Shown: positions 6,682-63,780 of the stretch, piece by piece | Numbering within the stretch: position 1 is the first letter of the stretch | Layout: every line of letters starts with the position of its first letter | Assembly: GCA_934101345.1 (NCBI GenBank) | Contig: CAKOQV010000001.1 | Location: 38,991-102,990, forward strand | DNA from: an uncultured Bacilli bacterium | GTDB taxonomy: Bacteria > Bacillota_I > Bacilli_A > RF39 > UBA660 | Direction: 5' to 3' | DNA: 64,000 bases | Position numbers and translations under genes: made by a program | Notes under the pieces: model-generated | The model's input: only the letters and a program-made list of their open reading frames with translations | Databases searched by the model: none | Told to the model about the DNA's origin: nothing

Positions 6682-7278
6682 ACTATAGAATTCTACAATT
6701 AGTGATTCATTGATTTCAGCGTTTAATTCGCTTCTTTCAGGATATCTAACATATGTAGCAGTTCTTTTTGCTTCATCATAATTAATAAAGTCAACTCTTT
6801 TAATTTTATTGGCTAATGCTATTTCAATTCCTTTGTGATCAGCAGAATTTTCTTTTATAGCAATAACATCTCCTGGTTTAACTCTGTAAGATGGAATATC
6901 AACTTTCTTACCATTTACAGTGATATGACCATGGTTAACTAATTGTCTTGCTCCTCTTCTAGTAGTAGCAAATCCAGCTCTATAAACTAGGTTATCTAAT
7001 CTACTTTCTAGTAAGATAAGTAAGTTTTCACCATGAACACCTTTCATTTTTGCAGAGTCATTTACTAATTTTTTGAATTGTTTTTCAGAAATACCATACA
7101 TAAATCTAACTTTTTGTTTTTCATTTAATTGAATAGCATAGTTAGAAGGTTTTCTTTTTCTGTCTTTACCATGTTGTCCTGGACCATAAGGTCTCTTCGC
7201 AATATCTTTACCATTTTCAAGTATTGAGAATGATACTCTTCTTGCTTTTTTGTTATTTGGGCCTGTATATCTAGCCAT
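6673..7278 (-). CDS. rpsD: 30S ribosomal protein S4
   Basis: MARYTGPNNKKARR…GARQLVNHGHITVNGKKVDIPSYRVKPGDVI… is the canonical S4 sequence. RBS GGAGGAAAG lies upstream. Confidence 0.95.
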   Translation of the reverse strand: MARYTGPNNKKARRVSFSILENGKDIAKRPYGPGQHGKDRKRKPSNYAIQLNEKQKVRFMYGISEKQFKKLVNDSAKMKGVHGENLLILLESRLDNLVYRAGFATTRRGARQLVNHGHITVNGKKVDIPSYRVKPGDVIAIKENSADHKGIEIALANKIKRVDFINYDEAKRTATYVRYPERSELNAEINESLIVEFYSRV

Positions 7279-7651
7279 TTTTCTTTCCTCCTTCTCTTAG
7301 AAGGCATACTATATTTTAATAGGGTGTCTTTAGCATACTTTCGCTATGCAGCCTTAGTTACTTATAAATGACACATTACTAAAATAGATAGTATCCGCTG
7401 CTAAGCAATAATATTATATAATTAATGATATGGTAAGTCAAGGAAAACTTGCTTGTTTTATTAATAAAATTATATTAAAAAGTGTAAAAAAAGTGTAAAG
7501 CGGTTAAAAATTGTCGAAATGTGTGTTATACTTGATATGATGATGATAGAAAGGGAGAGCTATCATTAAATTAGGAGGTGTTTGTTAAGAGGGGGAATTT
7601 CATTATGATGTTGCAAAATAATTATATATAATAAAATAAGAAAGGATGAAT

Positions 7652-46789: not shown

Positions 46790-47830
46790 ATGAAAAATAA
46801 GGATAAGAAGGAAAAGAATACTAACAAGAGAGATAATATATTTATGATTATTTTATCTATTGGTGATGTTATAGCGGTTACTGTTTTATTTCTTTTATAT
46901 GGACCTTATAATGGCTTTAGAGACTGGTTAGTTACTACAGCGATGGGTACAATGAATCATCAGTATTTGGCTACTACCTTTTATAATATGGATAGAATAG
47001 AAGAAATATTATCACATCATAGTACGGTGGAACCTGACTTTGATACTGATACTAGTTTAATTACTGCTGATGAGAATGAATATATTGATGATTATGATAG
47101 GGAGATACTGGATAGAAATAAGAATGATGTGTATAAGATTATTGAAATAGATGAAGATGGTTATTCGGGATATTTGGCTGCAGTGTATGATCCATCAAAA
47201 ATAAAGGTTACTTATAGTAAGAATCTTGGTGTTACTGGAGAGTATCTAGTTGATATGGCTAAGAGAGAAGGGGCAGTTCTCGCTATTAATGGTGGTGGTT
47301 TTGCTGATATTGGTGGACAAGGAAATGGTGGTGCTCCAGTTGGAGCTATTATATCTGGAGGTAAAGTACTTAACTCTTCTAATGGTACAGGAGGTGCTTA
47401 TGGCGGTGGTATTATAGGTTTTACTAATGATAATAAATTGTATCTTGGTAAAATTAGTACTAGTAGGGCAATAGAAATAGGCATTAGAGATGCAGTAGAA
47501 TTTGGACCATTTTTAATAGTAAATGGTAAGAGTTCCTTTATAAATGGTAATGGAGGTTATGGTGTTCATCCGAGAACCGCTATTGCACAGAGAAAAGATG
47601 GTATAGTATTATTTCTAGTTATAGATGGTAGGAGTCTTAAAAGTAAAGGAGCTGATATGAATGATTTAGTAAAAATATTACTTAGATATCATGCATATAA
47701 TGCTGCTAATCTAGATGGTGGTAATTCTAGTGTTATGGTAGTAAATAATAAGATTATTAATCATCCATTTAATTGGGATAATAGAGAAGAAACTAGACCT
47801 ATAGCAAGTGGATTTGTGGTTACTGAATAA
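46790..47830 (+). CDS. Phosphodiester glycosidase (NAGPA/DUF2233-like) with an N-terminal TM anchor
   Basis: TM helix IFMIILSIGDVIAVTVLFLLYG. The motif LAINGGGFADIGGQGNGGAP (vNGGFF-type) is typical of the bacterial NAGPA/DUF2233 family. Confidence 0.5.
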   Translation: MKNKDKKEKNTNKRDNIFMIILSIGDVIAVTVLFLLYGPYNGFRDWLVTTAMGTMNHQYLATTFYNMDRIEEILSHHSTVEPDFDTDTSLITADENEYIDDYDREILDRNKNDVYKIIEIDEDGYSGYLAAVYDPSKIKVTYSKNLGVTGEYLVDMAKREGAVLAINGGGFADIGGQGNGGAPVGAIISGGKVLNSSNGTGGAYGGGIIGFTNDNKLYLGKISTSRAIEIGIRDAVEFGPFLIVNGKSSFINGNGGYGVHPRTAIAQRKDGIVLFLVIDGRSLKSKGADMNDLVKILLRYHAYNAANLDGGNSSVMVVNNKIINHPFNWDNREETRPIASGFVVTE

Positions 47831-49170: not shown

Positions 49171-52100
49171 ATGGATAAAAAAGATATTAAAAATAAAAGT
49201 ATTAATGAACTGATGGCATTACTACTTGATAAAGATATTTTAAAAAAGGATAAGTTAAGAATAAATCGTATAGTTTATAGAAAATTAAATAACGATAGTG
49301 ATCGCGCAAATAATTGGAATTTGTTAAGAAAATATTTTAAAGGTTTAAAAGAAAATGTTAATATTGAGAATTGTTTGTCTGATAAAGATATGCCTAAATA
49401 TGTAAAGAAATATATTTTGGAATATGGTTTTAATGGTGAAGAGTTACGAATACTATTAAAGAAGAGTTTAGATTATGATTTAAAAGAATATATTGTAAAA
49501 GACTTACTTAATGTAAGTTATGAGGTTGTAAGAATACTTAAAGATGATATGATTGTTGATAAATTAAAGAAGCTTTGTGTAAAAAAAAATATAAATAATT
49601 ATAATATTATTAGTGTATTGTTAGAAAATACAATCGATGATGAATGTAGAGAATACATTTTATCTACTGAAAAAAGAAGATTTGTTAGAGTACTTTATTC
49701 TACTTCAAATAGAGAACTAATATATAGGCTTACTTTTGATTTTTCTAAAAATGGAGATTGTCTTAATAATGTTGATTTTATTCAAAAATATAAACCAAGT
49801 TTATTAAAAAATTTATCTAGGGCTATTAATTGTAGATATATTAGAGATCTTTATGATAAAACATTTAAAAATGAAACACTTATTGGTATTGTACTAGATA
49901 GAAATGAACAAAAGATTAATAAAGTTATTAATAATGTAAGAAAAGAAGAATGTATCAGATTTCTTGAAGTAAAAAAATTACCTAAAGAATATGTTCAAGT
50001 TATAATAAATAATAATATTAATTATTTAAATGATTATATCGATAAGCTTAGTGTTAGTGAAGTAATAAGAAAATTATATAATTATAAAAATATAAACTTG
50101 GAATTTAAAAAAATGATTGTTAATCGTAGGTGTGATGATCTAATTAATGAGTTAAATAGATATGATCTTAAGAAATATTTGGATTATGTTAATTATCACT
50201 ATTATAATGATAAATTGATTGTTAATACTATTAATAATAAAATTATTGATGAAGAAATATTCAGTGTTTTAAATACTCATACTTATGATAATAATATTAT
50301 TGATTTTATAGTAAAATATAAAGATGACTATATAAAAGAATTTTTATCTAATATTGATTGGGATAATCTTATTTATAATAAAAAAAATAATGATAGATAT
50401 ATTGATATAATTACTTCTTTAACTAATAATGTTCAAGATAAAATATATAAAAAAAATAATAAATATATAAAAAACATTTTAAGTAAATATGATAGCGATA
50501 CTTTAAATAAATTTTTAAGTAATAGCAATATTACCTCCAGTAAATTTATTCGTACTGTGCAAAATGTTATATTTAAAATATTTGATGTTAGTGATGAGAA
50601 GATAAATTATTGTAGTATTATTATAAAATATAGTAATGGAAGAAATATTTTTGAGTTGTTAAGAAATATAGAAGAATTTTTCAATAAAATTGAAATGGAT
50701 ATTAGTTTATTCTTTCAATATGGTAGTTATGAATTTGGTAACAAGTTAATTGATAATATAATTGAAATTAATAATAATAATGAAATAAATGATTTTATTA
50801 ATGTTAAAAAATATTTATTTGATAATTATTTTGATAATACTTTGAATAATGCTACGATGATTATTAATTTGAATTTAGTAATTAAAAATTATAATTTATA
50901 TAAAAATTTATTATTAGATATAAGTAATAAAAAATGTATACTTAATGATAATGATAAAAGTAATTTGTATTTACTTTTTAGTGGAAAATTTGCTGGTACT
51001 CCTTTAACTTTATATGAATTAGATGAAATTAAAAAGAAAGAATTTAGTAAATATAAAGAAGAAATACTTGATAAGAATACTTATATTAATAGAATTAAAG
51101 ATATATTTTTTAATAATATTATTGCTTATAATAGTAATTATTTTGATAGTATTGGTAATATTTCATTACTGAAGATACTACAAAAAGATAATATTGATAA
51201 TAAGGAAATTTTCTATTTAACTGAAGAAATTATTACTAGTATGGATATTATTAATAAACTGGCTACTACTAATGACAGAGATGAACTAGTTAAAATTGTT
51301 ATTTCTTATATAGATGGGGAAGATACTCCTGTTAATAGAATGATTAATGATATTATAGATATTAAGAGTAAAATTAGAAGATTGTATGAACTTGATAGTA
51401 TGTATAATTTAACTACTTTAGAATATGCGAGAAAGGTACCTGGTATATACAATAGGGAATATATGGAACTTTATGGTGGAGAGGTATTTGATTTTAGTGA
51501 TAAAAATTATGTATTATATGCACATGTGGTAAGTAGTAGAGAGAATATTGAAGATTTGGTTAATGGTTATAGTAGCGGTAATAGTAATTTTATTTCTTTT
51601 AGTCCAATTAGTTATAGAGGGCAGAAATATTATTATGATTACTGTGATTGTATATTGGCATATGATACTATATATGATAATAGCTTTATATGTAGTTCTT
51701 TATCTAATATGGGAAGTAATCATTGCATGGTAGAAAGGAATAGTGCAGTTGTGGCCGACAAATATAGAAATCAGAGAGGAATATTAGAAACTAGTTCTGT
51801 GAAGAAACAAAATGCCGAAACATTATTATATAGGGAAGGATTAAAACCATGTGGTATTATACTTGTTAATGGTAAAAAACCTAATAGTGATGAAATTATG
51901 TATCATAAAAGATATAATTTACCTTTTATTATTACACAAAAGAAAGGGACTGTGATTGATAATCCAAAGAGAGTGTTTACTTCTGGAAATGGCAAATATG
52001 TCAGTGACAGTAGGGTAAAAGAGCTTGATAGTATAAAGAAATATATTGATAGCAAACTAACAATTAAAAAAGAAAATGATATATATACAGGAAGAGAGAT

Positions 52101-52941
52101 AGCTATATTTACTGATACACATGCTATGTATGAACCTACTATTGCAATACTTGAGGATATTAGATATAGGGGTATAAGTGAGATTTATTCACTTGGTGAT
52201 AATACTTCACTTGGACCTAGTCCTAGAGAAGTACTTGATTTGATGGATAAATATAATGTAAAACAAATTATGGGTAATAGTGAGTATTATTTAACACTAG
52301 GAGGTAGTCCTTTTAATTACTGGAATGAAGAAAGAGAAAGAAGCTTAGATTGGACTAATGATAGAGTACAGGGATATATTAATGATTTAAAATTATATAA
52401 GCCTTCTTTAGACTTATTACTTGGTGATAAAAAGATAGCACTATGTCATTTTGGTAATGATATTAGATGGGATTTTATTAAACATAATACTTGGATATAT
52501 CAAGATAATATTGGTAATGGAAAGTCTTCTGAACAATTTATGTTTACTAATAGTGACGAATATAATAAAGAAGTAGAATATATGATAAATAAATATGGTA
52601 TTGATAATCCTAAAGTACAAGGATATTTATCTAGCAAGAATACTCCTATGTTTGAAGGCAAACTTATTACTTCGTATGATGATGTTTTTCAAGGTCATGT
52701 TCATTTTGAATTAGAAGATAGACTTAATAATACTAATATTCATACTTTAAGAGGAGCTGGTATGGGAGAACTTGATGAAAGTAAGAAGAGTATGGCATAT
52801 TATATAATTTTAAAAGAAAAGAAAATAGGTGGATATGATATAGAAAAGGTATACATACCATTTAATAAAAATAGTTTATTATCTAGTATATACTCTTCTG
52901 ATATGCCTACGAAAACAAAGATACTTAGTTACTTGAAATAA
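49171..52941 (+). CDS. Large multidomain protein: about 900-aa N/I/K-rich helical N-terminal region plus C-terminal calcineurin-like metallophosphoesterase domain
   Basis: C-terminal MPP motifs in order: IAIFTDTHA (D-x-H), LGDNTSLG (GD), GNSEYY (GNH[DE]-like), CHFGN, GHVHF (GHxH). No signal peptide or TM helix seen. The middle region (…YRGQKYYYDYCDCILAYDT…GSNHCMVERN…) is unassigned. Confidence 0.55.
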   Translation: MDKKDIKNKSINELMALLLDKDILKKDKLRINRIVYRKLNNDSDRANNWNLLRKYFKGLKENVNIENCLSDKDMPKYVKKYILEYGFNGEELRILLKKSLDYDLKEYIVKDLLNVSYEVVRILKDDMIVDKLKKLCVKKNINNYNIISVLLENTIDDECREYILSTEKRRFVRVLYSTSNRELIYRLTFDFSKNGDCLNNVDFIQKYKPSLLKNLSRAINCRYIRDLYDKTFKNETLIGIVLDRNEQKINKVINNVRKEECIRFLEVKKLPKEYVQVIINNNINYLNDYIDKLSVSEVIRKLYNYKNINLEFKKMIVNRRCDDLINELNRYDLKKYLDYVNYHYYNDKLIVNTINNKIIDEEIFSVLNTHTYDNNIIDFIVKYKDDYIKEFLSNIDWDNLIYNKKNNDRYIDIITSLTNNVQDKIYKKNNKYIKNILSKYDSDTLNKFLSNSNITSSKFIRTVQNVIFKIFDVSDEKINYCSIIIKYSNGRNIFELLRNIEEFFNKIEMDISLFFQYGSYEFGNKLIDNIIEINNNNEINDFINVKKYLFDNYFDNTLNNATMIINLNLVIKNYNLYKNLLLDISNKKCILNDNDKSNLYLLFSGKFAGTPLTLYELDEIKKKEFSKYKEEILDKNTYINRIKDIFFNNIIAYNSNYFDSIGNISLLKILQKDNIDNKEIFYLTEEIITSMDIINKLATTNDRDELVKIVISYIDGEDTPVNRMINDIIDIKSKIRRLYELDSMYNLTTLEYARKVPGIYNREYMELYGGEVFDFSDKNYVLYAHVVSSRENIEDLVNGYSSGNSNFISFSPISYRGQKYYYDYCDCILAYDTIYDNSFICSSLSNMGSNHCMVERNSAVVADKYRNQRGILETSSVKKQNAETLLYREGLKPCGIILVNGKKPNSDEIMYHKRYNLPFIITQKKGTVIDNPKRVFTSGNGKYVSDSRVKELDSIKKYIDSKLTIKKENDIYTGREIAIFTDTHAMYEPTIAILEDIRYRGISEIYSLGDNTSLGPSPREVLDLMDKYNVKQIMGNSEYYLTLGGSPFNYWNEERERSLDWTNDRVQGYINDLKLYKPSLDLLLGDKKIALCHFGNDIRWDFIKHNTWIYQDNIGNGKSSEQFMFTNSDEYNKEVEYMINKYGIDNPKVQGYLSSKNTPMFEGKLITSYDDVFQGHVHFELEDRLNNTNIHTLRGAGMGELDESKKSMAYYIILKEKKIGGYDIEKVYIPFNKNSLLSSIYSSDMPTKTKILSYLK

Positions 52942-53057: not shown

Positions 53058-54506
53058 GTGAAGAAAAACAGAAGAAAAAGAAGTAAGAATAAGGGTATTT
53101 GGTTTTTTAGAGCAATTGCTATAATATCAATAATTATATTTATAGTATTTGGGATTATGTTATATGTACTTGATATGATACCATTTAAGTATTTAATTAT
53201 CTTTTATATAGTATTTGGACTATTATATTTATATTTATTTATTACATCTTTTCCTAAGAAAATAAAGAATAAATTTAAGATTAGTTCATGTGTATTTTTA
53301 ATACTTTTTGCTACCATATTTGGCGTTGGTATTAAATATTTAAATGATACTATGGATTTTGTTGGGGTTATAAGTAAAGATTTATTTCAAAAAGAGGTAT
53401 ATTATGTTATGACTTTAGGGGATTCTAAATATAAAGATATTAAATATTTAGATGGTAAGTCTATAGGCATATATAGTTCTAAGAATAGTACTAAAGCTAG
53501 TAATGAATTAAATAAAAAGATAAAGAATATTTCTAAAGAGTATAAGAATGTTGTGGAATTATTTGAAGATTTACAAGATAATAAGATAGATGCTGTATTA
53601 ATTAATGAATCTACGAAGAATTTACTTGATACTGATTTAGCTGATATGAAACTTAAATTAAAGGAAATATATAAGGTATATGTTTCGATAGAAAAAACTG
53701 ATATAGTAAAAGTAGTTGATATTACTAAGAAGCCATTTAATATATATGTAGCAGGTGGAGATGCTTATGGTAGTATTGATAATGTTACTAATACTGATGT
53801 TAATATGATTATTACAGTAGATCCTGTTAATAAAAAAGTATTACTTACTTCAATACCAAGAGATTATTATGTTAATTTACCTTCGTTTGGTGATGATGCT
53901 TATGATAAACTTACTCATGCTGGATATTATGGTATAGAAGAGTCTGTTAAAGCTATAGAGAATTTACTTGATATTGATATTAATTATTATGTTAAGGTTA
54001 ATTTCTCTACTATTGAAGGTGTTATTGATGCAATTAAAGGTGTTGATGTTTATTCTGATTATAGTTTTAATGAATGTGCTTATGGTATATATCATTTTAA
54101 TAAGGGAATGAACCATTTAAATGGAAAACAAGCTCTTGCTTTTGCTAGAGAAAGGAAATCCTTTTCAGATGGTGATATACAAAGAGTTAAGAATCAGCAG
54201 AAAGTTCTTACAGCAATTATAGATAAAGTAACATCATCAACAACATTAGTGACTAATTTTTCACAAATATTAGATAGTGTTGGTAATAGTTTTTCAACGA
54301 ATATGGAAAGTAAAAATATTAATAGATTTATAAAGATGCAACTTAATGATATGCGAAGTTGGAGTATAGAAAGTCAAAATCTAGTTGGTACGGATTTTTA
54401 TACTTATACTTATACATATCCAAATTTACAATTATATGTAATGAAACAAGATGAAAATTCTATTGATGTGTCAAAAAATAAAATAAATAAGTATTTAAAA
54501 TGGTAA
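53058..54506 (+). CDS. LytR-CpsA-Psr (LCP) family cell-wall glycopolymer phosphotransferase
   Basis: N-terminal TM helices, then LCP-domain hallmarks NMIITVDPVNKKVLLTSIPRDYYV and …YVKVNFSTIEGVIDAIKGVDV…ALAFARER…. Confidence 0.8.
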   Translation: MKKNRRKRSKNKGIWFFRAIAIISIIIFIVFGIMLYVLDMIPFKYLIIFYIVFGLLYLYLFITSFPKKIKNKFKISSCVFLILFATIFGVGIKYLNDTMDFVGVISKDLFQKEVYYVMTLGDSKYKDIKYLDGKSIGIYSSKNSTKASNELNKKIKNISKEYKNVVELFEDLQDNKIDAVLINESTKNLLDTDLADMKLKLKEIYKVYVSIEKTDIVKVVDITKKPFNIYVAGGDAYGSIDNVTNTDVNMIITVDPVNKKVLLTSIPRDYYVNLPSFGDDAYDKLTHAGYYGIEESVKAIENLLDIDINYYVKVNFSTIEGVIDAIKGVDVYSDYSFNECAYGIYHFNKGMNHLNGKQALAFARERKSFSDGDIQRVKNQQKVLTAIIDKVTSSTTLVTNFSQILDSVGNSFSTNMESKNINRFIKMQLNDMRSWSIESQNLVGTDFYTYTYTYPNLQLYVMKQDENSIDVSKNKINKYLKW

Positions 54507-54559: not shown

Positions 54560-55651
54560 ATGAAAAAAAAATATACAAAAAAAAGAATTGCAATTTTTAC
54601 TGATAATTTTAATGTTGGAGGAATTCAAAAGTCTTTAGTAAATTTATTAAATAATAATGATTATGAAAAATATGATATTGATGTTTATGTTGCTAATTAT
54701 GAAAACAATTTTTTTGATGTTAATCCTAATGCTAATATAATTAGATTTAATAAGACTTCATCAATCTTAAAATTTATTCCTTTTAATGTTGTGTATAAGG
54801 TATATAATCCGATTGTATTGAATAAAGAATACGATTTAGCTATTGATTTTGATAGTTATCAAATGCATACTGCTATTGGTGCACTTAAATGTAAAAGTAA
54901 AAAGAAAGCAATTTGGATTCATAATGATATACAAATAAAAATAAAGGAAGAATTTAAATATAGGATTTTACATTTCTTTTTTAAGGACAAATATGATTAT
55001 TTTGATACTTATTGTGCAGTTTCACAGGGGGCTTTAGATTCTTTTAAAGAGATTAATAAAAATAAAAACAAGGATAAATGTTATCTAGTTATACCAAATT
55101 ATATTGACACAAAAGAAATAGCTGATAAGCTTAAAGAAAAAAGTGATATAAAAGTTGATAAAGAAAAAGTTAATATTGTTACAGTAGGAAGATTGTGTCA
55201 TCAAAAAGGAATTGATATTATGCTTGATAATATTAAACAGCTTAGTAATGTTAGAAAAGATTTTCATTTGTATATTATTGGTGATGGTGATGAAAAGGAA
55301 AAACTTATTGAGCAAATGAAAAGACTTGATTTAGAACAATATGTTACTTTTTTAGGCAATCAAAAGAATCCTTTTAAGTATTTGAAAGAAATGGATTTAT
55401 TTTATCTTTCTAGTAGATATGAAGGGCAAGGAATGGTTATATTAGAAGCAAAGAGTGTTGGACTTGATGTATTAATACCTAAACATTTAGAAAAGTATTG
55501 TCCGCCAATTAAAGGTGTAGACGATGTTTTATTGTATTTAAAGAAGTATAAGAAAAGTAATAAGACTAAAAAATTTGATGACTTAAACGATTACAATAAT
55601 AATATTAGAAAAGAATTAAATAATTTGTTTGATGCTTCAAATGATAAATAA
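54560..55651 (+). CDS. GT4-family glycosyltransferase
   Basis: GT-B/GT4 E-x7-E region EGQGMVILEAKSVGLDVL. About 360 aa. RBS AAGGAG upstream. Confidence 0.7.
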   Translation: MKKKYTKKRIAIFTDNFNVGGIQKSLVNLLNNNDYEKYDIDVYVANYENNFFDVNPNANIIRFNKTSSILKFIPFNVVYKVYNPIVLNKEYDLAIDFDSYQMHTAIGALKCKSKKKAIWIHNDIQIKIKEEFKYRILHFFFKDKYDYFDTYCAVSQGALDSFKEINKNKNKDKCYLVIPNYIDTKEIADKLKEKSDIKVDKEKVNIVTVGRLCHQKGIDIMLDNIKQLSNVRKDFHLYIIGDGDEKEKLIEQMKRLDLEQYVTFLGNQKNPFKYLKEMDLFYLSSRYEGQGMVILEAKSVGLDVLIPKHLEKYCPPIKGVDDVLLYLKKYKKSNKTKKFDDLNDYNNNIRKELNNLFDASNDK

Positions 55652-55663
55652 TTTATAGAGGAA

Positions 55664-56683
55664 GTGATTTTGGTGAAAGATAAAATAGATATTGTAATTC
55701 CTTGGGTAGATGGAAACGATATAGAATGGCAAAATGAAAAAAATAAATATAAGCAAAAAAAAGATGAAAAATTAAATAATAGTTCTCGTTTTCGTGATTG
55801 GGATAATTTGCAATATATATTCCGTGGAATTGAAAAATTTATGCCTTGGGTTAATAATATTTTCTTTATAACTTGGGGACATTTACCTAAATGGTTAAAT
55901 GTTGATAATCCTAAACTTAAGATAATAAATCACAAGGATTATATTCCTAGTAAATATTTACCAACGTTTAATTCTCATACTATTGAGTTAAATCTTTATA
56001 GAATAAAAGATTTAAGTGAAAAGTTTATTTATTTTAATGATGATACATTTGTTATTGATTATATGAGTGAAAGTATGTTCTTTAAAAATGGTCTTCCTTG
56101 TGATTGCGGGATTTTAAATCCAATTATACCGGTTGGATATGATAACTTTAGCAATGTTTCAGTAAATAATCTTACAATAATTAATGAAGAATTTAATAAA
56201 AGAACTTCTATAAAAAAGTCGATATTTAATTGGTATAATATAAAATATGGTTCTAATTTAATACGAAATTTTTCATTGATACCTTGGGGAAAGTTTCCTG
56301 GATTTTATAATGGACATTTGCCTAATTCATTTCTTAAGTCAACATTTTGTGAAGTATGGCAGAAATATGAAGAAACTTTAGATAATACTTGTTCGTGTCA
56401 TTTAAGAGATAATTTTACTAATGTTAATCAGTGGTTAATGAGATATTGGCAACTTGGAAAAAATCAATTTTATCCTAGGAATCCAAATTTTGGAAAATTT
56501 TATGAAATTACTGACAATAATGATAATATTATTAATGATATAAAAAGCCAAAAATTTAAAATGGTGTGCTTGAATGACGGAATAAATATTAATAATTTTG
56601 AGAAAACTAAGTATGAAATAAATGAAGCTTTGTCTTTTGTTTTACCGAATAAGTGTTCATTTGAAAAGAGTGATACTATATGA
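55664..56683 (+). CDS. Stealth-family hexose-1-phosphoryltransferase (capsule/wall-polymer phosphoglycosyl transferase); start likely the GTG at 55673
   Basis: Stealth CR1 IDIVIPWVDGND; CR2 PWVNNIFFITWGHLPKWLNVDNPKLKIINHKDYI; CR3 YFNDDTFVIDYM. The stop overlaps the next ATG (ATGA). Confidence 0.8.
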   Translation: MILVKDKIDIVIPWVDGNDIEWQNEKNKYKQKKDEKLNNSSRFRDWDNLQYIFRGIEKFMPWVNNIFFITWGHLPKWLNVDNPKLKIINHKDYIPSKYLPTFNSHTIELNLYRIKDLSEKFIYFNDDTFVIDYMSESMFFKNGLPCDCGILNPIIPVGYDNFSNVSVNNLTIINEEFNKRTSIKKSIFNWYNIKYGSNLIRNFSLIPWGKFPGFYNGHLPNSFLKSTFCEVWQKYEETLDNTCSCHLRDNFTNVNQWLMRYWQLGKNQFYPRNPNFGKFYEITDNNDNIINDIKSQKFKMVCLNDGININNFEKTKYEINEALSFVLPNKCSFEKSDTI

Positions 56684-58011
56684 AAAGAAAATTAAAAGAA
56701 GCATTTATAAAAATAAAAAGTAATGACTTTTGGAGAAAATTATTTAAGAATTCTTTCTATGCAATAATGGGTGAAGGTGGTTCTTCGGTTATTAACTTAT
56801 TTGTAGTTTTCTTGTTAATAAAGCTGTTAGGAAATGATAAATATGCAATTTTAGTATTGGCTCAATCTTATATGTCAATTTTAGATTTGATAATTAACTT
56901 GCAAAGTTGGCAAAGTGTTATAAAGTTTGGCGAAGAAATGAGAGTTAAAAATAAGATTGATAGATATTTGGAGTATATTAAATTAGGGACAATTTTAGAT
57001 GTTTCTACAGCACTTTTATGTGGAATAATTGGCTTTTTTATTGCACCTCTTGTTGGAAGCATATTTAATTGGAGTAGAGAATTAATAGTTTGCTGCCAAA
57101 TATTTACGGCGGAAATATATTTTCATTTTTCTGGTACTCCAATAGCTGTATTAAGACTAGAAAATAAGTTTAATTTAGTAGCATTACAAAAAATAATTTC
57201 TGCTGCTATAAAGTTGATAACATTGTTAGTAATTGTATTTATGACTCCCAAAATGTCATTAATAGCGGCTGTTATAATTTATGTTGCTACAGACATAATT
57301 TCACATTTAATCTTAGTAGCAATGTTTTTCTCTGTTGTACATAAGAAGTGGGGAATAAAAAAATTATTTAAATCTAAAATACCACAAAATAAAGGCGAAT
57401 TTATTAAGTATACAATATGGTGTACTTTAGGAGATGCTGTTGATATTCCTGTTTTATATTTAGATGTATTTGTTGTATCAGCATTAAAATTAGAGTTGGT
57501 AACTGTTTTTAAGGTGTTCAAACAAATAATGTCTATTTTATCAAAATTAGCATCACCAATTTATCAAGCAATCTTTCCACAATTTTCAACTTTGGTTGCT
57601 AAAGGTGAGTTTAAAAGGGGATATGATGCAGTTATTAGAATAAGAAATGCAGTATATAAGTATTTTATACCATTAATTATGTTAGTTGGACTTAGTTCAC
57701 CAATTTGGTTAAAGGTTATTTTTGGCGAATTATTTTCACAATACTGGTATGTGTTATTTATTTATCTGATAGTACATACATATGCATTATCGTACACTAC
57801 TATCCATCCATACTTTACTGCGTTAGGAAAAGTAAAAGAAGGATTTATAATTTGCTTGATAGCAAATATTGTATATTTAGGACTAGCACTATTATTAACT
57901 AAACATATCGGTATGATTGCTATTGTTATTAGTTATACTATTCAGATTTTAATTGTTATTCTTACAAAAAAGAAAATTATTAAAAAGGAAATTGATAGTA
58001 ATGATGTTTAA
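56680..58011 (+). CDS. wzx: Wzx-type polysaccharide flippase (MOP superfamily)
   Basis: About 12 predicted TM helices and the polysaccharide-biosynthesis-protein pattern. 443 aa. Translationally coupled to the Stealth gene. Confidence 0.7.
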   Translation: MKRKLKEAFIKIKSNDFWRKLFKNSFYAIMGEGGSSVINLFVVFLLIKLLGNDKYAILVLAQSYMSILDLIINLQSWQSVIKFGEEMRVKNKIDRYLEYIKLGTILDVSTALLCGIIGFFIAPLVGSIFNWSRELIVCCQIFTAEIYFHFSGTPIAVLRLENKFNLVALQKIISAAIKLITLLVIVFMTPKMSLIAAVIIYVATDIISHLILVAMFFSVVHKKWGIKKLFKSKIPQNKGEFIKYTIWCTLGDAVDIPVLYLDVFVVSALKLELVTVFKVFKQIMSILSKLASPIYQAIFPQFSTLVAKGEFKRGYDAVIRIRNAVYKYFIPLIMLVGLSSPIWLKVIFGELFSQYWYVLFIYLIVHTYALSYTTIHPYFTALGKVKEGFIICLIANIVYLGLALLLTKHIGMIAIVISYTIQILIVILTKKKIIKKEIDSNDV

Positions 58012-59491
58012 TTATGAATATTTTAGAAAAAAGAAAATTTTAATATTTTTACCACATCAGGATGATGAGATAAACACAGTATATGGAATGATTGGTAATA
58101 TAAAAAAAGTTGATGGTATTGTTAAAGTTGTTTATAGTACTAATGGTGATTATTGTGTTAATGCAAAATATCGTATTAAAGAAGCTATAAATAGTTTGAA
58201 AATAGTGAATATTAAGAAAGATGATATAATTTTTATGGGTTATTCAGATCAAGCACCGGAAAATAATAATCATTTATATAATGAGGATGTTAAATGGATT
58301 TCACATAATAAAATTAGTAATACATATTTACCTTATGGAAAAGAATATCATTTTGATAAATATAATGAACATGCTATTTTTAATAGACAGAATTTTGCAA
58401 ATGATCTTTTGAATATTATTACTGATGAGCAACCCGATATAATAATAGGTATAGATTATGATAATCATTGTGATCATCGCGCATTATCTTTATCATTAGA
58501 AAGCGCAATTGGAAGATATTTAAGGATATCTAAAAATAAACCTATTGTTTTAAAAGCTTTTGCGTATAATAACTCGTATAATGGAGAAGTTGATTATAAT
58601 AATCCAAATCCAATGTCAATAATGAAAAAAATTGAAAATCCTTATTATGATTGGAATAATAGAATAAGATTTTATCAGTCTGATGATGCCGTTAAAAATC
58701 TTTTGATAAATAATATTTATTTTAAAGGATTGCTACAGCATCATAGTCAGTATATTTTTAATAGAATAAAATCTGTTGTTAATTCTGATATGATATTTTT
58801 TATAAGAAATACTGGTAATTTACTAAACAATAGTGTTATTAGTGTTTCTTCGGGTAATTCTAAATATTTGTGTGACTTTATGCTTTATGATACTTCTGAT
58901 ATAACATATAAAGATAAATTATATGATAGTGGATATACAATTATTGATAGTAATGATAAATTAAAAAAAATTGATATAACCTTTCAGAAAAAAGTAAATG
59001 TCAATTGTGTTAATATTTATACTTCATTAAATAGTGCTAAACTAATTAAAATAACTATAAATGAAATTGAATATTCTTTTCAATATTTTAATCATATATA
59101 TTCTATACATGACTTAAACTTCAGCAATATTACAAACTTGTCAATTACATTAAGCTCTGATGATGAAAAAAATATCGAAATTGGCGAATTAGAAGTGTTA
59201 GAATATGAGGATATGCTTTATTATGCTAAACTTTCTTATCATAATAACTTTATATATAATTATAGGAAAGAATGGAATGTTTCATATAGTACGAATTTAA
59301 ATAGTACGAATTTTAAACTTATTAATGAGAAGAATAAGATAAGCCTTTTATATAATGATAAAATTGTTGATCAAATAAAAATAAAGAGATTTACATTCAA
59401 AAAATTAAATGATATAATTGATAATGTATGTATATTTTTAGGTAGAGTGATTCAAAAAATTGTTAAAATTAAAAGAAATATAATTAATTAG
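58001..59491 (+). CDS. PIG-L/LmbE-family N-acetylglucosaminyl deacetylase with an about 280-aa C-terminal extension
   Basis: LFLPHQDDE (HxDDE zinc motif), downstream …DHCDHRALS… (HxxH). The C-terminal half is unassigned. ATG at 58001 after AAGGAAA. Confidence 0.65.
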   Translation: MMFNYEYFRKKKILIFLPHQDDEINTVYGMIGNIKKVDGIVKVVYSTNGDYCVNAKYRIKEAINSLKIVNIKKDDIIFMGYSDQAPENNNHLYNEDVKWISHNKISNTYLPYGKEYHFDKYNEHAIFNRQNFANDLLNIITDEQPDIIIGIDYDNHCDHRALSLSLESAIGRYLRISKNKPIVLKAFAYNNSYNGEVDYNNPNPMSIMKKIENPYYDWNNRIRFYQSDDAVKNLLINNIYFKGLLQHHSQYIFNRIKSVVNSDMIFFIRNTGNLLNNSVISVSSGNSKYLCDFMLYDTSDITYKDKLYDSGYTIIDSNDKLKKIDITFQKKVNVNCVNIYTSLNSAKLIKITINEIEYSFQYFNHIYSIHDLNFSNITNLSITLSSDDEKNIEIGELEVLEYEDMLYYAKLSYHNNFIYNYRKEWNVSYSTNLNSTNFKLINEKNKISLLYNDKIVDQIKIKRFTFKKLNDIIDNVCIFLGRVIQKIVKIKRNIIN

Positions 59492-59510: not shown

Positions 59511-61964
59511 ATGAATAAGTTTAATAAAACTTTTAAATATATAATATATTTTTTACTTGTTTTTATGCCTTTTAGGGAGATAATAGGAATATATGATAAT
59601 GTATACTTAAAATTTATTCCAGATATTTTAATTATTTTTATGTTTTTTGGGTATCTATTTAAAAATAAGTTTAAGTTAAAATTTAAAGTTTATGATTATT
59701 TTTATATTTTGTTTTTATTGGGTGGCTTTTTAAGTGGTATTATTAATAATGTATCTTTTATAGCTATATTATTACATATGAGAACTTATGTTACAATGTA
59801 TTTCTTATTTTATATACTTAGAAATAATGAATATGAAATACAATTTTATAAAAATTGTTTAAAGATACTTATGATTGCTTTATCTGTATTAACAATAATA
59901 GGAATTGGTGAATATATTACAAGTAAAATTTACTTTTTTCCGTATCAATGGTTTATAGGAATAAAATATACTTCTAATTTATCTAGAATGTATACATTAC
60001 TTCATAGTCCAAATACATTTGGATATTATGCAGTTTTGGTAGTTTCTCTCTTTACTTATTTATATAAAGATTTTAAGAACAAAAAATGGATATTTCTTTT
60101 GGTATTAATTTTTCTTGGCATTATTTTGACTCAGTCTAGAAGTTCACAAGTAGCATTAGTGCTCATTCTATTTTATTGGTCTTTTGGCCTATTTAAAAAG
60201 CATGATTATAAAACCTTAATTAATATATTTTTAATTCTGTTATTGACATTTGGAACATATAAATTGTGTAACTATGCAAATAGAGCATTTTCAAATAGTG
60301 ATGCTTATAAAAGTTTTTTTGAAGAAAATACTGATAGATTTGATGATAATGAAAATGTAATTACTGATTCGGGTTCTAGATGGAATATAGCTGAAAATAA
60401 TGATGTATTTTATTCAATGAAAAATGGTAGACTTTTTAATATTAATTTAGGATTTAAAATATGGAAAACTAAGCCGTTATTTGGAACTGGTTTTGCAACA
60501 TATGGTACTGCTGGTAGTAGTGTTGTGATTCCTAAATTGTATAAACAATACAATTTATCAGATGACTTTTATTCAGATAATCAGTATATAGCAATATTTG
60601 TTGAAACTGGGTTATTTGGAACTTTAATGTTTGCAATGTTTATTTTAACACTAATATATGAGTATAGAAAAGACAGTTATAAATTAATGATGATTTTTAT
60701 ATTGATGTTAGTTTGTTTATTTTATAATGTTTTAGAATTAGCAGTATTGATGTCTTTATTTTACTTAATATTAACAATGAATAATAAAAATGGGAAAACT
60801 GGGAAAGGAGTAAAATTAAAAATGAAAAAAAATGATACTAATGAAAGAAAATATATAGTATTTTGCCAGGAACATTATAATCCACTTGGAATAATAAGAA
60901 GTCTAGGAGAAAATGGAATAAAACCAATTGTTATTATTAAAAGAGGTAAATATCAATTAGCTTCTAAAAGCAAATATATTGGTAAGTTGCACATTGTAGA
61001 TAAAATTGATGATGGATATGAAGTGTTGATGAAAGAATATGGAAAAGAAAAGTTAAAACCATTTATATATACTTCTGATGATACTATAACAAGTTATTTG
61101 GATTTGAAATATGATGAATTAAAAGATAAATTTATATTTTATAATGCTGGTAAAAAAGGCGAAGTAACTAAATATATGAATAAAGAAAATATAATTAAAT
61201 TAGCAGAAAAATGTGGACTTAATATTATAAAAACATGGAAATTAACTTCAAAGAAAATTCCTGATGATATGGAGTATCCATGTTTAACAAAAGCTATAAT
61301 ATCAACTAAAGATAATTGGAAGGCTGATAGTATTGTATGTAATAACGAAAAAGAATTAAAATCTGCTTTAAATAAAATTGATAGTAAAGAAATTTTAGTT
61401 CAGAAATATATTAAGAAAAAAAATGAATTTGCTGTTAATGGATTCAGTATTAATAAAGGCAAAGATGTTTTTTATGCATTTTCATTAAACTACTTAAGTA
61501 TAAATGACAATGCTTTTGGTAACTATATGATTATTAAAAATTTTGATAATAAAGAGCTAGAAAAAAAATTAAATAAAATTTTTGAATGTATTAAATTTGA
61601 AGGCATTTGTGAAGTTGAGTTTTTGGTAGATAAAAATGATGAACTATATTTTCTAGAAGTTAATTTAAGAAATTCAACTTGGGGGTATTCTTCTACTGTG
61701 GCAGGCATGAATTTACCTATATTATGGTCAGAAGCAATGTTAAGTCATAAATTGCCTAAAGATAAATTAAAAAAATTCAAACCATTTAAGGCAATGGCAG
61801 AAGATACGGATTATTATGATAGAGTTAAAACAAAAAAAGTTTCATTAATTAAATGGATTTTTCAAGCTCTTTCATGCAAATGTTTATATATAACTAATTT
61901 GAGAGATATGAAGCCTGTCTATTCTAAAATAGATAATATCATTAAAAATAAGATAAAAAAATAA
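59511..61964 (+). CDS. In-frame fusion of a Wzy/O-antigen-ligase-like membrane polymerase (aa 1-437) and an ATP-grasp ligase domain (aa 438-817)
   Basis: N-terminal half has multiple TM helices plus Wzy_C-type motifs (LHSPNTFGYY; LTQSRSSQVALVL; DNQYIAIFVETGLFG). C-terminal half has ATP-grasp blocks (…KAIISTKDNW…ILVQKYI…EFAVNG…; ICEVEFLVDKNDELYFLEVNLRNS). An internal RBS GGGAAAGGAG lies 10 nt before the in-frame ATG at 60822. Confidence 0.6.
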   Translation: MNKFNKTFKYIIYFLLVFMPFREIIGIYDNVYLKFIPDILIIFMFFGYLFKNKFKLKFKVYDYFYILFLLGGFLSGIINNVSFIAILLHMRTYVTMYFLFYILRNNEYEIQFYKNCLKILMIALSVLTIIGIGEYITSKIYFFPYQWFIGIKYTSNLSRMYTLLHSPNTFGYYAVLVVSLFTYLYKDFKNKKWIFLLVLIFLGIILTQSRSSQVALVLILFYWSFGLFKKHDYKTLINIFLILLLTFGTYKLCNYANRAFSNSDAYKSFFEENTDRFDDNENVITDSGSRWNIAENNDVFYSMKNGRLFNINLGFKIWKTKPLFGTGFATYGTAGSSVVIPKLYKQYNLSDDFYSDNQYIAIFVETGLFGTLMFAMFILTLIYEYRKDSYKLMMIFILMLVCLFYNVLELAVLMSLFYLILTMNNKNGKTGKGVKLKMKKNDTNERKYIVFCQEHYNPLGIIRSLGENGIKPIVIIKRGKYQLASKSKYIGKLHIVDKIDDGYEVLMKEYGKEKLKPFIYTSDDTITSYLDLKYDELKDKFIFYNAGKKGEVTKYMNKENIIKLAEKCGLNIIKTWKLTSKKIPDDMEYPCLTKAIISTKDNWKADSIVCNNEKELKSALNKIDSKEILVQKYIKKKNEFAVNGFSINKGKDVFYAFSLNYLSINDNAFGNYMIIKNFDNKELEKKLNKIFECIKFEGICEVEFLVDKNDELYFLEVNLRNSTWGYSSTVAGMNLPILWSEAMLSHKLPKDKLKKFKPFKAMAEDTDYYDRVKTKKVSLIKWIFQALSCKCLYITNLRDMKPVYSKIDNIIKNKIKK

Positions 61965-62078
61965 GAAACAAATTAATAAAGGTTTCTGTGTTCTGTTGAT
62001 AAATTACTACTTTAATTGTTAATAGTGACCATTTATTTGGAAAAAGAGAGCTTTTCTCTTTTTTTTCATTTTATTTTT

Positions 62079-62087: not shown

Positions 62088-62116
62088 TGATTTGAGTGTA
62101 TGTAGGAGGTAATAGA

Positions 62117-62836
62117 ATGAAGGAACTATTTGATAAACTTTATAATAAAAGTGAAGAGTCATTTTATGAAATATTAGAAAAAAATTTAAGTCAAAATAAA
62201 AAAACATTTATTGTAACTGCAAATCCTGAAACATTTATGATGAGTGAAAAAGATGAAGAAATGAGAAAGCTACTTTTGGATAACGATACTTTTTTGGTAC
62301 CAGATGGGATTGGAATAGTAAAAGCCGCTAGAATGATTAACTATGATGTTAAAGAAAGAATTACTGGAATAGATATTGCAAATGAATTGTTAAAGCTTGG
62401 AAATGAGCAAAAAAAGTCAATCTATTTGTTTGGCGCAAAACAAGAAGTAATTGATTCTATGATAAAAGTATTAGAAGAAGATTATTCAAATTTGAAACTA
62501 GTTGGAGCATCAAATGGTTATGAAAAAGATAAAGATAAAGTATTTGAAAAAATAGTAAAAGCAAAACCTGATATAGTATTGGTTGCATTAGGCATTCCAT
62601 TTCAGGAAAAATTAATATATAAACATTTAGATGAATTTGATAAAGGAATTTTTGTTGGAGTAGGTGGTTCATTTGATGTAATAAGTGGTCATAAGAAGAG
62701 AGCTCCTAAAATATTCATTAAATTAAATTTAGAATGGCTATATAGAATACTAAAAGAGCCAAAAAGATTAAAAAGATTCTATGATAGTAATGTAAAATTT
62801 ATATTTAAGGTAAAAAAGAAAAGTAGGAGGTCTTGA
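62117..62836 (+). CDS. tagA: WecB/TagA/CpsF-family glycosyltransferase (N-acetylmannosaminyltransferase-like)
   Basis: Family motif GVGGSFDVISG and …VALGIPFQE…. RBS GTAGGAGG 5 nt before the ATG at 62117. Confidence 0.75.
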   Translation: MKELFDKLYNKSEESFYEILEKNLSQNKKTFIVTANPETFMMSEKDEEMRKLLLDNDTFLVPDGIGIVKAARMINYDVKERITGIDIANELLKLGNEQKKSIYLFGAKQEVIDSMIKVLEEDYSNLKLVGASNGYEKDKDKVFEKIVKAKPDIVLVALGIPFQEKLIYKHLDEFDKGIFVGVGGSFDVISGHKKRAPKIFIKLNLEWLYRILKEPKRLKRFYDSNVKFIFKVKKKSRRS

Positions 62837-63780
62837 ATATGAAGTTATCGTTGATAATACCTTGTTATAATGAAGAAAAAAATATTGAACCATTTATGAA
62901 ATGTTGCATTGAAACTTTTGGTAATAACAAAAATATTGAATACATATTTATTAATGATGGTAGTAAAGATAATACTTTTTCTGAAATAACAAAAATAATA
63001 GAAAAATATAATACGGAAAATATATTGGGTATTAATTTTTCAAGAAATTTCGGGAAAGAAGCTGCTATGTTAGCAGGATTAAAAAAATCTAAAGGCACTT
63101 ATACTGCACTGATTGATGCCGACTTGCAACAGCATCCAAAGTATGTAAAAAAAATGCTTGAATATATTGAAAAACATGATGAATACGATTGTATAACTTG
63201 TTATCAGGAAAAAAGAAAAGAAAAAAAATTAATAATATGGTTAAAGGAAAGATTTTATAGTTTGATAAATAAAATAAGTGAAGTCCCATTTTATAAAAAT
63301 GCATCAGATTTTAGATTGTTTAATCGAAAAGTATTAAACTCCATATTAGAAATGGAAGAATATTATCGTTTTTCAAAAGGAATATTTTCTTATGTGGGAT
63401 TTAATACATATTATATGCCCTATGAGGTTAATGAAAGATTATATGGAACAAGTTCTTGGTCGCTATTTGGATTATTTAAGTATGCATTTAACGGTATAGT
63501 AGGATTTTCTGTTGCACCTTTAAAATTAGCTACAATATTGGGATTGATAACAATGCTATTTTCTTTAATATATTTAATAATTGTAATTATTAAGAAAATT
63601 GTAGTTGGTATAGCAATAAGTGGTTATCCTACAATAATTTGTTTAATTCTAATTTTTGGCGGATTACAAATGTTCTTATTGGGTATAATTGGTGAATATC
63701 TTGGCCGAGTATATGTTGAACTAAAAAGAAGACCAGTTTATATAATTAAAGATGAAGTAAGTAGAAAAAAGGAGAGCTAA
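62833..63780 (+). CDS. GT2 glycosyltransferase with two C-terminal TM helices (GtrB/CsbB-like polyprenyl-phosphate sugar transferase)
   Basis: N-terminal IIPCYNEE, DxD motif (DADLQ) and two C-terminal hydrophobic helices. Confidence 0.7.
   Translation: MNMKLSLIIPCYNEEKNIEPFMKCCIETFGNNKNIEYIFINDGSKDNTFSEITKIIEKYNTENILGINFSRNFGKEAAMLAGLKKSKGTYTALIDADLQQHPKYVKKMLEYIEKHDEYDCITCYQEKRKEKKLIIWLKERFYSLINKISEVPFYKNASDFRLFNRKVLNSILEMEEYYRFSKGIFSYVGFNTYYMPYEVNERLYGTSSWSLFGLFKYAFNGIVGFSVAPLKLATILGLITMLFSLIYLIIVIIKKIVVGIAISGYPTIICLILIFGGLQMFLLGIIGEYLGRVYVELKRRPVYIIKDEVSRKKES

Follow-up and report, generated by a model that had tools for sequence, protein, structure and literature searches.

The 64,000-nucleotide stretch of DNA that we analyzed (hereafter the window; positions 38,991 to 102,990 of contig CAKOQV010000001.1, assembly GCA_934101345.1, from an uncultured Bacilli bacterium) contains a polysaccharide locus in which a single 817-codon open reading frame (ORF) joins a Wzy_C-type polymerase domain to an ATP-grasp ligase domain through a lysine-rich linker. 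The genes preceding this ORF encode a LytR-CpsA-Psr (LCP) family protein, a GT4 glycosyltransferase, a Stealth-family hexose-1-phosphoryl transferase, a Wzx-type flippase and a PIG-L family de-N-acetylase, and those following it, past a terminator-like hairpin, encode a WecG/TagA-family glycosyltransferase and a GT2 glycosyltransferase (Table 1). The host is a gut bacterium of the Bacilli with a cell wall and a very AT-rich genome; the window has a G+C content of ~25%, TGA serves as a stop codon, and peptidoglycan genes are present. Its closest named relatives are uncultured Bacilli and Erysipelotrichaceae. Below, related loci are designated L and homologous proteins P, each with a number.

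Table 1. Features of the polysaccharide locus and their positions in the window (aa, amino acids; SD, Shine-Dalgarno; RBS, ribosome-binding site; AF2, AlphaFold2).
Feature	Positions	Strand	Basis or remarks
Fusion ORF: Wzy_C-type polymerase, linker and ATP-grasp ligase	59511-61964	+	817 aa; ORF list, Pfam, full-length homologs P0001-P0005
Wzy_C membrane domain, aa 1-425	59511-60785	+	Pfam, AF2 model, hydropathy, invariant columns
Lysine-rich linker, aa 426-445	60786-60845	+	~20 residues; disordered in the model; most variable stretch among fused homologs
SD-like GGGAAAGGAG	60801-60810	+	11 nt before the in-frame ATG; probably the relic RBS of a formerly separate ATP-grasp gene
In-frame ATG, Met438 (codon 438), domain boundary	60822-60824	+	sequence and homolog starts
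ATP-grasp ligase domain, aa 438-817	60822-61964	+	Pfam, NCBIfam, PDB sequence match, AF2, Foldseek, invariant columns
Codon 452, TGC	60864-60866	+	TGA nonsense codon in L007, a 584-kb contig of a near-identical strain
A8 homopolymer in the invariant KKN motif	61416-61423	+	A7 in at least 23 contigs of near-identical strains, many samples
PIG-L family de-N-acetylase with a ~300-aa C-terminal extension	57953-59491	+	Pfam PIG-L, 53.9 bits; proposed partner of the ligase
Wzx-type flippase, 443 aa	56680-58011	+	homologs with PF01943; 47% identical to the N-terminal half of the L025 fusion
Stealth-family hexose-1-phosphoryl transferase	55664-56683	+	Pfam Stealth_CR1 and CR2; CR3 and CR4 below cut-offs
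GT4 glycosyltransferase	54560-55651	+	Pfam
LytR-CpsA-Psr (LCP) family protein	53058-54506	+	proposed to anchor the polymer to the wall
Terminator-like hairpin after the fusion gene, before the TagA gene	62038-62068	+	1 found against 0.2 expected in shuffles
WecG/TagA-family glycosyltransferase	62096-62836	+	Pfam
GT2 glycosyltransferase	62833-63780	+	Pfam
NAGPA-like phosphodiester glycosidase ("uncovering enzyme" family)	46790-47830		also in L004

A first-pass annotation of this DNA had described the ORF as an in-frame fusion of a polytopic Wzy_C protein to an ATP-grasp domain, and our analysis bears this out. The motifs that it quoted are found in the translation (LTQSRSS at aa 205-211, SDNQY...VETGLFG at aa 355-370 and LEVNLR at aa 715-720), and Pfam and fold comparisons support the assignment of the two domains. 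The membrane half matches Pfam Wzy_C (PF04932) at aa 195-375 with 66.4 bits, against a cut-off of 31.7, and covers the full length of the profile. We modeled the two halves separately; in an alignment of the full-length protein, free-standing Wzy sequences were only 12-18% identical and were judged to be misaligned. The AF2 model of the Wzy half (pLDDT 82.5) contains 12 long helices and a 104-aa loop (aa 255-358) predicted to lie on the outer face of the membrane, which bears R290, R307, D356 and N357; these four residues and R210 are invariant across 18 Wzy sequences. The sole significant PDB fold match of this half (E<=0.001) is the O-antigen ligase WaaL (7tpg_B; E 3.6e-4, probability 1.00), and it is a distant one (TM 0.37-0.41, 12% identity). 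In its Wzy_C match, its 12 helices and its large outer loop with conserved arginines, the half resembles the WaaL/Wzy_C superfamily, of which we know of no characterized member with a C-terminal cytoplasmic enzyme domain. The locus context, with a Wzx flippase, an LCP protein and TagA, fits a polymerase, and sequence alone cannot separate a polymerase from a ligase in this superfamily.

The C-terminal half matches profiles of the ATP-grasp superfamily: seven Pfam ATP-grasp families match at E<0.01 around aa 580-750, and two of these models reach their cut-offs (Dala_Dala_lig_C, 24.8 bits vs 24; CPSase_L_D2, 24.7 vs 19.8). Its PDB sequence match is PurK (3orq, 5.7e-10), and its AF2 model (pLDDT 92.9, pTM 0.90), which has the three-domain ATP-grasp fold, retrieved PurK, PurT, biotin carboxylase and L-amino-acid ligase in Foldseek, with E-values of 1e-17 to 1e-15, TM ~0.65 and at most 18% identity. 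We also sought the closest characterized ATP-grasp enzyme by fold and rejected this route, as the matches were generic and gave no functional lead. Similarly, an NCBIfam scan of the fusion ORF returned distant ATP-grasp matches only and reached no equivalog. A D-aspartate ligase label comes from one JGI name only, given to the homolog P0125, and the surrounding genes form a polysaccharide locus instead of a mur locus. The residues that are invariant in the family (58 members) are all present in the window copy (K594, K636, K637, N638, E639, E703, E716, N718 and R720), and they take in the lysines of KKNE as well as the metal/phosphate site, E...E-x-N-x-R. From the sequence and the model, we conclude that this domain is a complete, probably active ligase without a characterized close relative. 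The family to which it belongs is large (772 matches in a word-indexed search; 1,842 representatives at E<=1e-3), and its members are almost all free-standing proteins of 370-390 aa.

The fusion is conserved. Full-length fusions form five 90%-identity clusters (P0001-P0005, 815-820 aa; 99, 80, 79, 74 and 67% identical in a whole-protein search), and the fused loci that we compared came from a Hadza gut metagenome-assembled genome (MAG; L001), ENA and Logan assemblies (L003-L006) and further metagenomes (L016-L020). All the assemblies that we examined, which stem from different projects and assemblers, have the junction in frame, down to 67% protein identity, and the fused loci share a neighbor order of GT4, Stealth, Wzx, PIG-L and then the fusion. 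As the in-frame junction and its neighbors are shared across independent assemblies, both an assembly indel at the junction and a recent fusion by a single-nucleotide change, one of the two readings offered in the first-pass annotation, are ruled out; the disruptions that we did find all lie inside the ATP-grasp half. We also considered whether the fusion arose by loss of a stop codon between adjacent wzy and ATP-grasp genes. This is not supported by gene order, compared here for the closest free-standing copies with enough flanking sequence, in which the ATP-grasp gene precedes wzy or follows PIG-L; the orders seen are PIG-L, ATP-grasp (L002) and PIG-L, ATP-grasp, an optional BCCT gene, Wzy::GT4 (L023/L024).

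From hydropathy and the distribution of lysines, the N-terminus, the short lysine-rich loops and the linker after helix 12 are predicted to face the inside of the cell, and the 104-aa loop the outside. The ATP-grasp domain is predicted to be cytoplasmic, because it needs ATP and follows an even number of helices after a lysine-rich N-terminus, and the active sites of the Wzy and ligase domains are therefore predicted to lie on opposite sides of the membrane. An inside-facing C-terminus is further supported by other proteins of the same Wzy clade, which are fused at the identical point to a cytoplasmic GT4 domain (P0006-P0008, 823-843 aa; L023, 2445-4928; L024, 8757-11240). The Wzx/Wzy pathway assembles its repeat units on undecaprenyl phosphate inside the cell; Wzx then flips them, and Wzy polymerizes them at the external surface (PMC12502699). 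With the two active sites on opposite sides, ligation during polymerization, which the first-pass annotation had suggested, is therefore unlikely, and ligation before flipping is the natural reading.

We scanned 80 metagenome loci that carry relatives of the ATP-grasp domain, using hidden Markov models built from the window locus. Among these were 5 Wzy fusions, 1 Wzx fusion (L025) and ~26 loci in which a PIG-L gene adjoins the ATP-grasp gene. PIG-L adjoins the fusion in every fused locus that has upstream sequence, and it also adjoins the free-standing ATP-grasp gene of L002 and the Wzx fusions of L096 and L097; in L002, a rumen Erysipelotrichaceae MAG, a 374-aa ATP-grasp protein (59% identical) directly follows PIG-L with an ATGA overlap. 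A Pfam scan of the direct neighbors, which covered 33-34 of 41 non-redundant locus clusters, found PIG-L in 8, DUF2334 in 3 and Polysacc_deac_1 in 1, and one of the DUF2334 neighbors weakly resembles Polysacc_deac_1. In one protein (P0231, 714 aa), the ATP-grasp domain is itself fused to Polysacc_deac_1. The PIG-L protein of the window has a weak BshB2 match (NCBIfam 26 bits against a cut-off of 195). As listed, its ORF begins with a TTG codon that still belongs to the last part of the flippase gene, and its homologs are called at 496-506 aa; the true start is probably the ATG near 58001.

A second recurrent neighbor is a BCCT-family transporter, found directly downstream of the ATP-grasp gene in 7 of 34 clusters and within ~2.5 kb in ~16 of 41. 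It occurs in L002 and L004/5, and loci with a BCCT gene next to the ATP-grasp gene include L021, L024, L026, L043, L072, L086 and L092. In NCBIfam these transporters score best against models of carnitine/gamma-butyrobetaine and glycine-betaine transporters, but none of the scores reaches an equivalog cut-off. This neighborhood hints at an imported substrate for some members of the ATP-grasp family. As there is no BCCT gene in the 64-kb window or in L001, L003 and L006, this idea applies to the relatives and not directly to the window gene.

The same ATP-grasp family has also been fused to a flippase. In L025 (4627-7140), an 837-aa ORF consists of a Wzx flippase (47% identical to that of the window over 426 aa) and a C-terminal ATP-grasp domain (57% identical), with a Wzy_C gene upstream and PIG-L downstream. 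The L025 type (P0311) has 41 member sequences, and four further proteins (P0312-P0315, 821-827 aa, 38-43% identical) have the same architecture. In L096 and L097 (fusion at 7001-9470), the order is Bac_transf, GT, GT4, Stealth, Wzy, [Wzx::ATP-grasp], PIG-L, Acyl_transf_3. Judged by these sequences, the gene set of the window (Stealth, Wzx, Wzy, PIG-L and ATP-grasp) recurs with another order and another fusion partner. The independent fusion of this family to the C-terminus of Wzx argues for a common membrane-associated pathway or complex and for tethering of the ligase, and not for a particular tie to polymerization.

Several other architectures were observed among the relatives. A GINT1_N-like domain is fused to an ATP-grasp domain of the family in P0220, P0285 and P0299 (~670-690 aa), and P0190 (866 aa) has a polytopic N-terminal part of 478 aa, assignable neither to Wzx nor to Wzy, followed by an ATP-grasp domain at 479-860. 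Two or three tandem ATP-grasp modules are present in P0186, P0191, P0212, P0214, P0232, P0241 and P0245 (1240-1357 aa) and in P0237 and P0238, an arrangement that suggests stepwise ligations.

PIG-L family enzymes (MshB, BshB, PIG-L) remove the N-acetyl group from N-acetylglucosamine (GlcNAc) glycosides, ATP-grasp enzymes convert a carboxylate into an acyl phosphate and transfer the acyl group to an amine, and LytR-CpsA-Psr family proteins attach polymer to peptidoglycan. We propose that these activities would act in sequence at the window locus. The PIG-L enzyme would de-N-acetylate an amino sugar in the undecaprenyl-linked repeat unit or in a precursor of that unit, and the ATP-grasp domain would activate a carboxylic acid, either an amino acid or a similar small acid, as the acyl phosphate and link it as an amide to the amine freed by PIG-L. 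Wzx would then flip the decorated unit, the Wzy half would polymerize it on the outer face, and the LCP protein would anchor the product to the wall. In this scheme the fusion would be a membrane tether, which would keep the ligase near its lipid-linked substrate and in a fixed ratio with the assembly machinery, and ligation would not be coupled to polymerization. In the relatives with a BCCT gene, the ligated acid may be imported. We put the probability of this explanation as a whole, including that the 817-aa product is one bifunctional membrane protein kept by selection, at roughly 0.6.

Several observations weigh against this explanation. The topology is a prediction, made from hydropathy and the model, and the nearest solved structures of the ATP-grasp domain share no more than 18% identity with it, so that the substrate and the direction of ligation are read from the neighboring genes only. 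Moreover, only about one third of the non-redundant related loci have a PIG-L or other deacetylase gene right beside the ATP-grasp gene. Fusions of polysaccharide genes are also common in these lineages: besides those described above, we found Wzy_C::Wzx (P0317, 829 aa) and fusions of other polytopic proteins to Wzx (P0316, P0318 and P0319). A fusion may thus say little beyond membership in the same pathway. Finally, most fused lineages keep a GGAG sequence and an ATG at the junction, within a linker that varies elsewhere, and the internal start could thus be functional.

This last point is the basis of the alternative that we consider next, in which one gene yields two products. Under it, ribosomes would also start at 60801-60824 and produce a free 380-aa ATP-grasp enzyme, and the fusion would be either incidental or the source of a second, tethered pool of the enzyme. 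As the first-pass annotation stated, an SD-like site (containing AAGGAG) and an in-frame ATG lie exactly at the domain boundary, within a linker whose residues 426-450 are disordered in the model (pLDDT 26-31); the gap between them is 11 nt and not 10. A TAA does occur in the +1 frame directly after the SD-like site (60811-60813), as also noted there, but it is uninformative: the +1 frame has 90 stops in 817 codons, and we rejected this TAA as a trace of an old stop codon, since it is expected by chance. The SD motif alone is not rare either, because 5 of the 314 internal in-frame ATGs in window genes (1.6%) have a comparably strong SD 4-13 nt upstream. What is non-random about the site is its position, within 5 codons of where free-standing homologs start. 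The free-standing copy in L002, which has its own GGAGG, begins MNERKYIV; its start lies 5 codons beyond the counterpart of Met438. Such homologs also show that the ATP-grasp domain folds and works alone, which speaks for the two-product alternative.

Comparison of the fused lineages tells against a need for this internal start. The window, L001, L004/5, L006 and L016-L020 retain both GGAG and ATG at a spacing of 11-14 nt, but the spacing has drifted to 14 nt in L001, L004, L006 and L020, and L003 (P0004, 74% identical) has ATA in place of ATG, has lost the GGAG and is still fused. The L025 Wzx::ATP-grasp protein keeps a methionine at the junction (SDN|MNDKIYIV), whereas the older Wzx::ATP-grasp fusions P0312-P0315 have none, a pattern that fits start sites decaying after fusion. 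Nor did we find an internal promoter for a separate ATP-grasp transcript, as promoter-like sites were not above the shuffled background (34 vs 27 +/- 6). We infer that the ATP-grasp gene used to be separate and that the SD-like site and ATG are what is left of its start. Internal initiation at this site is clearly not required, and we consider the two-product alternative somewhat unlikely.

Another alternative keeps the tethered ligase and reverses its chemistry. In Campylobacter jejuni, Cj1438 (and HS19.11) consists of a polymerizing GT2 glycosyltransferase fused to a TupA-like ATP-grasp amidoligase, which amidates glucuronic acid (PMC11800379). By analogy with the C-terminal domain of this protein (Cj1438C), the window ligase would use a uronic acid of the glycan as its substrate, activating the carboxylate at C6 for amide formation with an amine such as an amino acid, ethanolamine phosphate or serinol. 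The precedent is close in design, and ATP-grasp chemistry permits either direction. However, no TupA-like ATP-grasp model is among the Pfam matches of the window domain at E<=0.01, and no UDP-sugar dehydrogenase, the enzyme that forms uronic acids, is among the Pfam-matched genes of the window locus or its relatives. The recurrent neighbors are instead amine-generating deacetylases, and many related loci carry BCCT importers, whose typical substrates (betaines, carnitine) have a carboxylate and no reactive amine. We therefore regard ligation in this direction as unlikely.

The Cj1438 protein is the nearest known counterpart of the window fusion, and the comparison qualifies the remark of the first-pass annotation that it knew of no characterized arrangement of this kind: this precedent exists (PMC11800379), and the searched literature contained no Wzy or Wzx fusion to an ATP-grasp domain and no Wzy_C member with a C-terminal enzyme domain. 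In both proteins a chain-building enzyme carries a C-terminal cytoplasmic ATP-grasp domain that forms, or in the window is proposed to form, an amide on the same polymer. The partner in Cj1438 is a soluble or peripheral GT2 enzyme of an ABC-transporter-type capsule pathway, whereas that in the window is a polytopic Wzy of a Wzx/Wzy pathway, and the activities of Cj1438 are on one side of the membrane, whereas those of the window fusion are predicted to be on opposite sides. Furthermore, Cj1438C is TupA-like and activates a sugar carboxylate, whereas the window domain lacks a TupA-like match and its neighbors point to a sugar amine as the acceptor; the resemblance is architectural only.

A parallel for the proposed chemistry is offered by mycothiol and bacillithiol, which are made by a GT4 enzyme (MshA/BshA), a PIG-L deacetylase (MshB/BshB) and a ligase, in that order. 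The window locus likewise encodes GT4, PIG-L and an ATP-dependent ligase, and in both cases a GlcNAc glycoside would be deacetylated and the freed amine aminoacylated, although for the window this chemistry is a proposal. The two differ in that the mycothiol ligase MshC resembles class I aminoacyl-tRNA synthetases, whereas the window ligase is an ATP-grasp enzyme, and in that mycothiol and bacillithiol are soluble thiols, whereas the product at the window locus would be a polymer. Also close are the uncharacterized free-standing ATP-grasp proteins of 370-390 aa from Wzx/Wzy loci of gut Firmicutes, which are 44-61% identical over the domain, share its invariant residues and are often encoded next to PIG-L. 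They differ from the fusion in that their genes have their own SD and start, and many are followed by a BCCT gene, of which the window has none.

Comparison of related strains suggests that the ligase half is a variable module. The DNA of L004 (8001-12000) and L001 (10001-13160) is 99% identical from the Stealth gene to approximately codon 467 of the fusion and then 63-77% identical through the remaining ATP-grasp sequence; L004 has an extra BCCT gene after the ATP-grasp domain, and 99% identity to L001 resumes at the TagA gene. A cassette of ligase and transporter has thus been exchanged with the reading frame kept, and its left breakpoint falls inside the ligase domain, after ~20 codons.

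The 99%-identity cluster of the window protein has 254 member sequences, and some near-identical strains carry disrupted copies. The A8 tract of the window is A7 in other strains, an allele that yields ORFs of 658 aa and 145 aa and loses only the ligase half; codon 452 is a nonsense codon in L007; one contig has T3 in place of T4; and in L012 another tract has changed as well, by one additional A at 61832. The lesion sites are 60866, 61416-61423, ~61541 and 61832. All of the lesions seen in near-identical strains lie in the ATP-grasp half, and none was seen in the Wzy half. Together with the cassette exchange, this leads us to infer that the ligase half is a decoration module that can be exchanged or lost.

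It is tempting to read the A8 tract as a phase-variable switch, in which slippage at 61416-61423 would toggle the decoration within populations and leave the polymerase intact. The number and spread of contigs with A7 (Table 1) are in keeping with this, as is the second tract change in L012, and the A7 and A8 alleles share one 7.1-kb haplotype that otherwise differs only by singleton single-nucleotide polymorphisms. This haplotype pattern, however, fits a recent mutation and repeated switching alike, as star-like haplotypes cannot separate one inherited mutation from many. The tract also follows from the way in which an AT-rich genome encodes the invariant KKN motif: conservation of the tract as a sign of selected mutability was not found among the relatives, since it is interrupted (AAGAAAAAGAAT) in L001, L020 and most others. 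In addition, the nonsense codon of L007 is a lesion that slippage does not produce. We judge a phase-variable switch to be improbable. An artifact or a decaying gene, in which an indel joined two genes or a pseudogene is on its way out, would draw on these disrupted copies (A8 to A7, TGC to TGA, T4 to T3) and on a genome full of homopolymers, but it is extremely unlikely, as the junction is in frame in all assemblies to 67% identity, the disruptions fall within the ATP-grasp half and none at the junction, and the window copy has intact catalytic residues.

Taken together, the fusion is real and conserved, and its proposed mechanism, tethered ligation before flipping, is coherent. The fusion is apparently undocumented, yet it follows known principles: ATP-grasp amidoligases that act on capsules and enzyme fusions in glycan loci are already known, and the window adds no new principle in this respect. 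The better lead is the decoration module and its variability at the population level, rather than the SD-like site and ATG at the junction. In the searched literature a module of PIG-L, ATP-grasp and BCCT genes was not described, and Cj1438 was the only relevant precedent. We tentatively suggest, as a conjecture that could well be wrong, that PIG-L and this ATP-grasp family, with BCCT in many loci, constitute an undescribed pathway of cell-wall glycopolymer decoration in low-GC gut Bacilli, in which de-N-acetylation of an amino sugar on the lipid-linked repeat unit would be followed by re-acylation, through an amide bond, with an amino acid. In the BCCT variants, an imported betaine- or carnitine-like acid would give the wall a fixed charge. 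The ligase would be held at the membrane by Wzy or Wzx, and the module would be swapped as a cassette and silenced by frameshifts, plausibly under pressure from phages or antibodies.

The recognition of gut bacteria by phages, antibodies and lectins depends on surface glycan decorations, yet for uncultured low-GC gut Bacilli there has been almost no work on the polymers of the wall. For one such polymer, the locus yields a three-enzyme hypothesis, in which a deacetylase and an ATP-grasp ligase would act before the flippase and polymerase, and it draws attention to an ATP-grasp family with more than 1,800 representatives, none of them characterized. The independent fusions to Wzy and to Wzx provide Rosetta-stone evidence that decoration enzymes belong within the Wzx/Wzy membrane assembly complex. 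The natural knock-out alleles and the cassette swap offer ready comparisons for glycan chemistry and for studies of phages and their hosts.

Some further features of the window were noted. An Rfam scan of the window gave no matches. Given the hairpin that follows the fusion gene, the decoration and polymerase genes may end a transcription unit. The flippase ORF had no direct Pfam match at E<=0.01, and homologs 83-86% identical to it have precomputed PF01943 matches. A 1256-aa ORF at 49171-52941, between a polysaccharide deacetylase gene and the LCP gene, has no Pfam or NCBIfam match. Lastly, the Stealth-family transferase and the NAGPA-like glycosidase form a pair that recalls the eukaryotic mannose-6-phosphate tagging pathway, and both genes are also present in L004.

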